From: Vairimorpha necatrix
Lineage: Eukaryota
DNA length: 64,000 bases
Direction of reading: 5' to 3'
Assembly: GCA_036630325.1 (NCBI GenBank)
Contig: CP142737.1
Location: 496,001-560,000 of the forward strand
The position numbers and the translations under genes were made by a program. The notes under the pieces were generated by a model that did no database searches, had not been told where the DNA came from, and saw only the letters and a program-made list of their open reading frames with translations. This document shows, piece after piece, positions 1,849-2,864 of this stretch. Numbering within the stretch: the first letter of the stretch is position 1; each line of letters begins with the position of its first letter.

Positions 1849-1917
1849 ACCCTCCATAAGAGAGCGTCCACGTCGCGGAGGGTGGGACCGATGTTTTTTA
1901 ACTAGGTGCAGATCTCT
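1849..1917 (+). ncRNA. HDV-like (CPEB3-type) ribozyme fold, copy 2
   Basis: P1 ACCCUCC(1849-55)/GGAGGGU(1877-83); P2 AGAGA(1859-63)/UCUCU(1913-17); P3 GCG/CGC around L3 UCCACGU; GG(1884-85) can pair with L3 CC; P4 ACC..GUU/AAC..GGU; putative catalytic C1909 followed by AGA. Confidence 0.82.
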
Positions 1918-2349
1918 AAGTCTTACCAACCTTCGGCTGCTGGTTGGTAAGTAGGGTCAGCTATACTCTAGGGGTGGGAGACCCATTGCTGGTGAGAAGG
2001 ACACCGTTAACTTTCGAGTAATTCTTCATATTTTTAACCTGGGAGAGGTTGGGCATGATACTGAAGCTGTATTGTTCCGCTGAACTGAGTCGTGTTCTTA
2101 AATGGTGTATTGAACCAGGCGTTGTGTTTTCGTCAGGTCCGCGAAATATGTAGTCAGAGATGACTAAGGATCTGTTACCTACGGGAACAAATTTTTCTCC
2201 TACAAGCGAGGCCGTTGAGGTATGCTGGCGTGTAATCGCAATTATTGATGTTTTTCTGGTTGGTGGAGTTTTTGGTGGCTTGGTGGCTTTTCTTCGTTTT
2301 GCTGATTCTGTCTTTTTTACAATAAACAATTTTATTTTTTTTTTATTTT
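1849..2349 (+). mobile_element. Non-autonomous SIDE/SINE-like retroelement: ribozyme + ~120-nt structured head + LINE-A-type 3' UTR + T-rich tail
   Basis: 2037-2349 is homologous to the 3' UTRs at 5229-5554 and 14590-15047; flanked by AGGTGCAAATTTCTA at 1834-1848 and 2350-2364. Confidence 0.75.
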
Positions 2350-2363
2350 AGGTGCAAATTTCT

Positions 2364-2432
2364 ACCCTCCATAAGAGAGCGTCCACGTCGCGGAGGGTGG
2401 GACCGATGTTTTTTAACTAGGTGCAGATCTCT
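2364..2432 (+). ncRNA. HDV-like ribozyme fold, copy 3
   Basis: Same sequence as copy 2; putative catalytic C2424. Confidence 0.82.
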
Positions 2433-2864
2433 AAGTCTTACCAACCTTCGGCTGCTGGTTGGTAAGTAGGGTCAGCTATACTCTAGGGGTGGGAGACCCA
2501 TTGCTGGTGAGAAGAACACCGTTAACTTTCGAGTAATTCTTCATATTTTTAACCTGGGAGAGGTTGGGCATGATACTGAAGCTGTATTGTTCCGCTGAAC
2601 TGAGTCGTGTTCTTAAATGGTGTATTGAACCAGGCGTTGTGTTTTCGTCAGGTCCGCGAAATATGTAGTCAGAGATGACTAAGGATCTGTTACCTACGGG
2701 AACAAATTTTTCTCCTACAAGCGAGGCCGTTGAGGTATGCTGGCGTGTAATCGCAATTATTGATGTTTTTCTGGTTGGTGGAGTTTTTGGTGGCTTGGTG
2801 GCTTTTCTTCGTTTTGCTGATTCTGTCTTTTTACAATAAACAATTTTATTTTATTTTTTTATTT
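2364..2864 (+). mobile_element. Second, near-identical SIDE/SINE-like copy (515-bp tandem period)
   Basis: Direct repeat of 1849-2349; followed by AGGTGCAAATTTCTA at 2865-2879. Confidence 0.75.

Follow-up and report, generated by a model that had tools for sequence, protein, structure and literature searches.

The 64-kb stretch of DNA analysed here (contig CP142737.1, positions 496,001 to 560,000; hereafter the window) starts inside a large-subunit (LSU) ribosomal RNA (rRNA) gene, and a non-coding unit of ~500 nucleotides (nt), termed U, lies directly behind this gene. U begins with a sequence that fits a hepatitis delta virus (HDV)-like self-cleaving ribozyme and ends in a 3′ untranslated region (UTR) and T-rich tail of the type carried by LINE-A, a long interspersed nuclear element (LINE) of the window. 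With slightly better than even confidence, U is interpreted as a non-autonomous, self-processing parasite of LINE-A of the class without long terminal repeats (non-LTR), resident directly behind the LSU gene. In the proposed mechanism, RNA polymerase I (Pol I) would read past the end of the LSU gene and produce a co-transcript, in which the HDV-like ribozyme, lacking the P4 helix, would cut 5′ of its own first base (1849, or 1778 for a related motif, Rz1). The cut would free an RNA of ~500 nt starting with the ribozyme and ending in the LINE-A-type 3′ UTR and T-rich tail. The LINE-A protein, with its apurinic/apyrimidinic endonuclease (APE) and reverse transcriptase (RT), would recognise this 3′ end in trans and insert copies at new sites by target-primed reverse transcription (TPRT), giving full-length copies that begin at the cleavage site and many 5′-truncated ones. 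We infer catalysis, Pol I read-through and the use of the LINE-A protein from the features described below. Coordinates are those of the window, and features lie on the + strand unless a minus sign is given.

Anatomy of the unit and its ribozyme-like start

U is composed of a 51-nt ribozyme-like start, a 20-nt link, a head with a hairpin, and 312 nt of LINE-A-type 3′ UTR with a T-rich tail. In the first copy, U1 (1849-2348), the ribozyme occupies 1849-1899, as assigned by hand threading and a descriptor scan, with cleavage predicted 5′ of 1849. The link (1900-1919) and the head extend together over 1900-2036 and resemble neither LINE-A nor tRNA nor any of the families in Rfam, and the UTR copy with its tail (2037-2348) is recognised by its identity to LINE-A 3′ ends. 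The head, located between the ribozyme part and the UTR, is 119 nt long and contains a perfect 10-bp stem, in which CTTACCAACC (1922-1931) pairs with GGTTGGTAAG (1942-1951); the stem is present in the minimum free energy (MFE) fold. The second copy, U2 (2364-2863), has the same ribozyme, head, UTR and tail, with a descriptor match at 2364, and the alignment of 1849-2363 with 2364-2878 showed 99.0% identity over 516 aligned positions. Both copies are bracketed by an identical 16-nt repeat, present three times (1833-1848, 2349-2364 and 2864-2879), the final base of the second repeat being the first base of U2. Two origins come into question for the repeat: a target-site duplication, or a link that was internal to some older element. 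Upstream of U1 and immediately after the LSU gene lies a further HDV-like motif, Rz1 (1778-1829), defined by the descriptor and by 93.5% identity to the unit's ribozyme. Downstream of U2, a head-less UTR and tail (2880-3192) shows 93.9% identity to the UTR of U1, has the U-type variant of 2120-2170, and is probably the 3′ part of an older element starting with Rz1.

A dispersed copy of the unit is located at 45191-45644 (91.0% identity), with flanks unrelated to ribosomal DNA (rDNA). It is 5′-truncated inside the ribozyme, starting at the GAUG of J4/2, which is unit position 42, so that the ribozyme's initial 41 nt are missing. Comparison of this copy with U1 showed that the head (45219-45337) is 96.6% identical and the UTR (45344-45644) just 89.4%. 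A 5′-truncated LINE-type 3′ UTR fragment (45646-45869) follows it head to tail. An earlier note on this DNA had described the unit as a ribozyme-like start, a head with a perfect hairpin at 1922-1951, a UTR match of ~310 nt and a T-rich tail, with two near-identical copies and a diverged one at 45190, and all of these were recovered. It had also suggested checking dispersed copies for target-site duplications of their own; around the 45191 copy no convincing one was found.

The head has no other match in the rest of the 64-kb window, any LINE sequence included, and a 31-nt stretch of it gave 0 matches among metagenome contigs. ARAGORN found 0 tRNA genes in 1600-3300, and Rfam searches at E values up to 10 gave no tRNA, 7SL or 5S family and no other small-RNA match for the unit. 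Within the unit there are T-runs of six (1894-1899) and five residues, and a run of six T residues would stop RNA polymerase III (Pol III). Both the internal T-runs and a head that resembles neither tRNA nor 5S nor 7SL RNA speak against transcription by Pol III. Two antisense stop-free frames, 1966-2347 (−; 128 amino acids) and 2479-2850 (−; 124 amino acids), are broken in the LINE copies and were set aside as probably an effect of base composition.

The first 51 nt of the unit could be threaded by hand onto the nested double pseudoknot of HDV-like ribozymes without P4. Helix P1 has seven Watson-Crick pairs (1849-1855 with 1877-1883), P2 has six pairs (1858-1863 with 1894-1899) and P3 is a GC-rich helix of 3 bp, GCG with CGC (1864-1866 with 1874-1876). 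In the 7-nt loop L3 (1867-1873) the conserved positions are occupied by U, C and G, and the CC of this loop (1868-1869) pairs with GG (1884-1885) to form P1.1 without a spacer. The position of P4 is taken by 3 nt (1886-1888). These are followed by the candidate catalytic residue C1889, in a CGA context before the 3′ strand of P2, whose role is predicted from its position. The active-site letters are those conserved in the HDV-like ribozymes of HDV, CPEB3 and R2 (PMC3774820, PMC4836649). The segment P3-L3-P3′ equals the Rfam CPEB3 consensus at 15 of 16 letters. In Rz1, P1 has six pairs, one of them G-U, followed by a mismatch.

The fit was evaluated with a strict descriptor, comprising a P1 of seven pairs with at most one mismatch, a P3 of three pairs, an L3 of 7-8 nt with U, C and G fixed, P1.1, and the C followed by a P2 of 5-6 bp. 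On both strands of the window it matched at 1778, 1849 and 2364 only, and in 500 block-shuffled windows it gave 10 matches, with at least one match in 8 of the 500. A loose descriptor, without the L3 letters, gave 0.17 matches per shuffled window and is not specific; its match at 37936 in the window is AT-rich and unrepeated and was attributed to chance. The 27-nt ribozyme core had 0 matches among metagenome contigs. A 19-nt P2-P3-L3 pattern matched 15 prokaryote-genome contigs, all of them bacterial records, and these were taken as chance. With good confidence, the sequence is predicted to be a genuine HDV-like ribozyme that is still active or was so until recently. The ribozyme proposed in the earlier note is supported, over the 5′ 51 nt, by the threading, the descriptor and the CPEB3 letters, with an Rfam score below threshold.

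Junctions with the rRNA gene and the 5′ limit of the copies

The LSU gene at the start of the window is short and AT-rich (Rfam LSU_rRNA_eukarya, 983 bits), and Rfam at the gathering score reported LSU alone and no ribozyme family. Its reduced 3′ part was assigned to 1-1738, with an uncertain 3′ end at ~1738 to 1777. Aligned to the archaeal LSU model, the gene stops at 1738 (high posterior); aligned to the eukaryotic model, it stops at 1948 in one case and at 1829 in another (low posterior both times), and the three alignments disagree. One alignment to the eukaryotic model takes in the ribozyme as though it were the last rRNA helix, and automatic rRNA annotation would probably over-extend the LSU gene here. 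On the best-supported reading of the gene end, Rz1 starts ~40 nt 3′ of the gene. The rRNA may instead end at 1777, at the same bond as the predicted cut, since 1765-1777 resembles the final letters of the Rfam eukaryotic LSU consensus and 1745-1781 is identical among the window and the contigs of two public runs (X1 and X2), with several differences in 1713-1744. Between the LSU gene and Rz1, direct reading showed a 12-nt stretch (1746-1757) equal to ribozyme positions 1856-1867 (J1/2, P2 and the 5′ side of P3), which may be the scar or remnant of an older junction. The depth of X2 contigs falls across 1722-1769.

Further evidence on the arrangement behind the gene came from contigs of public runs, aligned at 80% likeness, for which depth is one figure per contig and serves as a hint. 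Record 1 of X1 (429 nt, depth 53) consists of 1650-1782 followed by 1849-1974, placing the LSU 3′ region, the ribozyme and the head on one contig. Similarly, record 23 of X4, a freshwater metagenome, consists of 1736-1785 followed by 1858-1958. Because the contigs of both runs join the LSU 3′ end to a single ribozyme and head, the order LSU, one ribozyme, link and head is the usual rDNA arrangement and not a chance junction. The connection with rDNA is thus stronger than the earlier note had supposed. The arrangement of the window (Rz1, 16-nt repeat, U1, U2) has a depth of 1.4-2.8 in X1 and is a minor locus, probably a single one. The junction between LSU and ribozyme differs by run: X1 joins 1782 to 1849, with a doubled 5-nt P1 start, and X4 joins 1785 to 1858, in the form of Rz1. 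Variation and P1 duplication have been described at the 5′ junctions of R2 elements (PMC3774820). The element is positioned 3′ of the LSU gene and not within it, at a site that Pol I may transcribe.

The same contigs bear on a host-centred explanation. The ribozyme and the head would then be the native 3′ external transcribed spacer (ETS) of the rDNA, acting in pre-rRNA 3′ processing or Pol I termination, and the units would be chimeric retrocopies formed when the LINE-A RT jumped from broken LINE-A RNA onto cleaved spacer RNA. It is favoured by the ribozyme and head behind LSU in X1 (on the same contig) and X4, by LINE-A 5′ ends without this module, by the terminator-like T-run in which the head ends, and by the constancy of 1745-1781 in the window, X1 and X2 beside the variable 1713-1744; template jumps of the R2 RT onto other RNAs have also been documented (PMC3414825). 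However, the contig across the head-UTR junction (X1 record 2, 2001-2095) has a depth of 117, exceeding the 53 of the LSU contig, which is a better fit to a self-propagating family than to a rare accident, as far as one depth figure per contig can be read. The junctions behind LSU vary by run (X1 1782 to 1849, X4 1785 to 1858), as the 5′ junctions of mobile elements do, and no ribozyme in a 3′ ETS was found reported in the literature searched, supplements excluded. This explanation is considered unlikely. A further proposal is host co-option of the ribozyme, which would be fixed behind every LSU gene and cut at or within a few bases of the LSU 3′ end, taking the place, in the reduced nucleolus of a microsporidian, of 3′-ETS cleavage and termination that depend on proteins; the same cut would feed the retroelement family. 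Were 1777 the last base of the mature LSU, the predicted cut would fall exactly on the rRNA end. The proposal as a whole carries little probability.

The 5′ ends of the copies show a clear relation to the predicted cleavage site. U1 and U2 start within 1 nt of it. In X2, 1103 contigs aligned to the unit, ranging from at least 99% likeness to below 90%, and the tail (2336-2349) is joined there to 11 starts (1850, 1903, 1915, 1959, 2017, 2019, 2022, 2146, 2151, 2154 and 2226), the joint at 2022 being found in X3 too. Two more X2 joints at 1850 and 1851 bring those at 1850 or 1851 to three. None of the 11 starts joined to a tail in X2 lies upstream of 1850, and no joint of any kind falls between LSU and 1849. 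The 5′ limit of the copies is sharp, at 1849-1851. The joints have the pattern of TPRT, with variable 5′ truncation and an RNA 5′ limit at the predicted cleavage site. These joints, and the 45191 copy with its unrelated flanks, agree with the expectation of the earlier note that copies exist beyond this locus. Units and LINE-A copies also form head-to-tail strings, with boundaries at 2864/2880, 3192/3195, 5556/5557, 15041/15043 and 45644/45646, an arrangement that suggests insertion into or beside existing T-rich tails. One X2 contig joins the link (1919) directly to 2267, ~80 nt from the end of the UTR, and is a possible mini-variant consisting of the ribozyme and a minimal 3′ end.

A further explanation is DNA-level duplication alone: one chance junction would have multiplied as a segmental duplication or through unequal crossing-over, and retrotransposition would have played no part. 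U1 and U2 are in tandem, 99% alike and within the same 16-nt bracket, and rDNA flanks recombine often. This explanation is highly improbable, given that the copy at 45191 breaks off within the ribozyme between flanks of unrelated sequence and that X2 has 11 distinct 5′ starts joined to tails. In addition, arrays of R1 and of hybrid short internally deleted elements (SIDEs) separated by target-site duplications are a known result of repeated insertion (PMC3414825).

The LINE-A partner and the weight of the evidence

LINE-A is an APE-type non-LTR element, as the earlier note had proposed. Exo_endo_phos (PF03372) was detected in 10795-12609 and RVT_1 (PF00078) in 12856-14502 and 3082-5139, on the same strand, and the element has a 3′ UTR and a simple tail. 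The nearest named relative of its RT is a Nosema granulosis protein labelled 'LINE-1 reverse transcriptase like protein' (44% identity), the next relatives by name are other microsporidian and Smittium entries, and there are two close RT relatives, P0001 (78%) and P0002 (62%). The named relatives, together with the reduced rRNA, point to a probable microsporidian origin of the DNA. The longest copy (5629-15041) has the ATG of open reading frame 1 (ORF1) at 5629, APE at 10795-12609 and RT at 12856-14502, and is interrupted by an LTR element at 5953-8279. A 5′-truncated copy (3195-5556; RVT_1 E = 4.7e-39; 84% identity to 12559-14871) has an RT ORF at 3199-5139, a 3′ UTR and a tail. A second LINE-A 5′ region (46017-47462) is homologous to 5629 onward from the ORF1 ATG, with no ribozyme or head upstream.

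Comparisons of the unit's UTR (2037-2348) with the 3′ ends of RT-bearing LINE-A copies showed 87.9% identity to 5229-5549 and 84.2% to 14590-14871, and the LINE-type fragment at 45681-45869 shows 85.9%. The unit and LINE-A share the T-rich tail and the head-to-tail arrangement. The earlier note had ascribed the 3′ part of the unit to a LINE-A 3′ UTR, which the identities of 84-88% support. The two 5′ ends of LINE-A in the window (5629 and ~46017) have neither ribozyme nor head (0/2), and their homology begins exactly at the ORF1 ATG. The earlier note had described the unit as SIDE-like, with LINE-A copies that might begin with the ribozyme and head; the shared 3′ UTR and tail uphold this description at the 3′ end, and the unshared 5′ end does not. 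The U-type variant of the UTR (2120-2170) is common to 2880-3192 and 45344-45644. Judged by sequence, the unit forms a lineage of its own whose 5′ module is foreign, and it is not an internally deleted LINE-A: neither LINE-A 5′ end of the window carries a ribozyme or head, the head is unmatched and the UTR variant is confined to the U-type sequences.

A true SIDE would be obtained if the unit were the internal deletion of an unseen, ribozyme-headed LINE-A subfamily with a U-type 3′ UTR, located in another part of the genome and perhaps behind LSU genes as well. R2 SIDEs arise exactly in this way (PMC3414825), and the UTR variant of the unit differs from all three LINE-A 3′ ends of the window, at 84-88% identity. 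However, both LINE-A 5′ ends lack ribozyme and head, the head is unmatched to any LINE sequence in the 64 kb, and the X1 loose ends directly upstream of the UTR are two known LINE-A ORF-side sequences only. This origin is rather improbable.

Several observations weigh against the interpretation of U as a ribozyme-headed parasite of LINE-A. P2 pairs solely through A-U and G-U, and the P4 hairpin is absent, with 3 nt between P1.1 and C1889. In R2 ribozymes, P1 has 6-7 bp and P2 at least 5 bp, and P4 sometimes has too few nt to fold (PMC3774820); the missing P4 is not disqualifying, because some R2 ribozymes are too short there to form it. The match to the CPEB3_ribozyme model, at 14.5 bits (E = 1.8 for the 1.6 kb searched), fell short of the gathering score of 35, and a repeat of the Rfam search with 1835-1915 (81 nt) gave no match. 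Nested MFE folding, which does not cover the pseudoknot, gave no signal (z = −0.05 and −0.44); the corresponding values for the head (−1.48) and the opposite strand (0.21) are uninformative. The three ribozyme copies, of which just two are distinct, are too few and too alike for covariation to be counted. The shared 16-nt bracket of U1 and U2 fits repeated insertion at one site and local duplication alike, and the U-type UTR variant is present on none of the three LINE-A 3′ ends in the window. The run evidence comes from contigs aligned at 80% likeness, with short sides at some joints, and X1 may come from the same sample as the window. Record 1 of X1 stops at 1974, short of the UTR, so that in the common rDNA copy the head may or may not be followed by a UTR.

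The points concerning the fold would also be accommodated if there were no catalysis, that is, if the HDV-like fit were fortuitous or the ribozyme dead. The rDNA flank and the LINE-A tail would then have been copied by LINE-A, with the 5′ limit set otherwise, for instance by another processing site. The sub-threshold Rfam score, the empty repeat search, the weak P2, the absent P4, the uncountable covariation and the chance matches of the loose descriptor are in line with this possibility. Against it stand the rarity of the strict descriptor in shuffled sequence (8 of 500 windows), its occurrence within 1 nt of a unit boundary three times, and active-site letters that are those conserved in HDV-like ribozymes (PMC3774820, PMC4836649). 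Insertions reported in X2 after 1782 (CCC) and 1783 (CC), as given by the alignments and not by the contig letters, would preserve or extend P1. A fortuitous or dead ribozyme is accordingly held to be quite improbable.

Beyond the unit, the 147 nt before 46017 (45870-46017) are unique in the window and may be the true 5′ UTR of LINE-A; a stretch of them (~45886-45915) also follows the tail of a unit in one contig of X1, whose loose end is at 2351. The small LTR element in LINE-A ORF1 (5953-8279) has 255-bp LTRs that are 99.6% alike, an integrase-like ORF at 7205-8029, TG..CA ends and an 'atat' duplication, and the uninterrupted sequence is present at 46300-46345. Two IS1595/Merlin-like DDE transposase ORFs (27337-28239, −, and 30183-31055, −) lie inside a diverged LINE-A-like copy (~26637-32314). 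The window has a G+C content of 33%, and no small-subunit (SSU) gene or second LSU gene follows further along its 64 kb. The other 62 kb consist of transposon remains, namely LINE, Ty3-like LTR elements and IS1595/Merlin-like DDE genes.

Related systems and significance

The closest known kind of element is the R2/R1 hybrid SIDE of Drosophila. Like U, it is short and non-coding and combines a 5′ HDV-like ribozyme, in U a predicted one, with a 3′ UTR taken from an APE-type LINE. The hybrid SIDE lives in the rDNA unit, is presumed to be processed from an rRNA co-transcript, and forms tandem arrays whose copies are set apart by a 14-bp target-site duplication and mixed with LINE copies (PMC3414825); U may do likewise, with its place behind the LSU gene, the 16-nt repeat between its copies and LINE-A copies alongside. 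However, the ribozyme of the hybrid SIDE comes from a second rDNA LINE, R2, whereas no ribozyme-bearing LINE was seen in the window. R2 and R1 insert at fixed sites inside the 28S gene (PMC3414825), and U is located behind the LSU gene. Because it lies behind and not inside the gene, U need not inactivate the rRNA. In further differences from the hybrid SIDE, the partner of U is dispersed, the 119-nt head between ribozyme and UTR is not traced to LINE-A, tRNA or an Rfam family, the ribozyme has no P4, and the host is probably microsporidian.

As is proposed for U, R2 and its SIDEs use an HDV-like ribozyme that sets the 5′ end from an rRNA co-transcript, and in R2 ribozymes P4 may be too short to fold. 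The P1 of R2 may use flanking rDNA, with a duplicated P1 at 5′ junctions, comparable to the doubled 5-nt P1 start in X1 (PMC3774820). In contrast to U, R2 has a restriction-like endonuclease and one fixed 28S site, and R2 SIDEs share both ends with R2 (PMC3774820), whereas the 5′ module of U is present on neither of the two LINE-A 5′ ends. L1Tc and NARTc of Trypanosoma cruzi resemble LINE-A and U in combining an APE-type LINE with a non-autonomous partner that has a 5′ HDV-like ribozyme. However, L1Tc and NARTc share their first 77 nt, which are both ribozyme and promoter (PMC3185411, PMC3383444), and are not known to be linked to rDNA; LINE-A has no ribozyme. Classical short interspersed nuclear elements (SINEs) are likewise composite and non-autonomous and join a head of foreign origin to a 3′ tail derived from a LINE, but U has no Pol III head and contains internal T-runs. 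The ribozyme-bearing elements of Schistosoma are a precedent for small ribozymes in non-LTR retrotransposition, with twister variants there and an HDV-like motif in U (PMC8501958). Searches of the literature, supplements excluded, for HDV-like or other self-cleaving ribozymes in microsporidia, rDNA and transcribed spacers returned no report of such an element.

If the interpretation of U as a self-processing LINE-A parasite is true, ribozyme-processed, rRNA-co-transcribed retroelements would extend beyond the R2 and R1 systems of animals to a probably microsporidian genome. A site behind rather than inside the rRNA gene would allow the element to reach every rDNA unit without harm to the host. 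U would also illustrate how a ribozyme module of foreign origin and the tail of a LINE can be combined into a LINE parasite, and the 51-nt candidate without P4 would be a very small natural HDV-like ribozyme. If the cut also shapes the 3′ end of the rRNA, the host would be employing the ribozyme of a mobile element in rRNA maturation, a rare arrangement.

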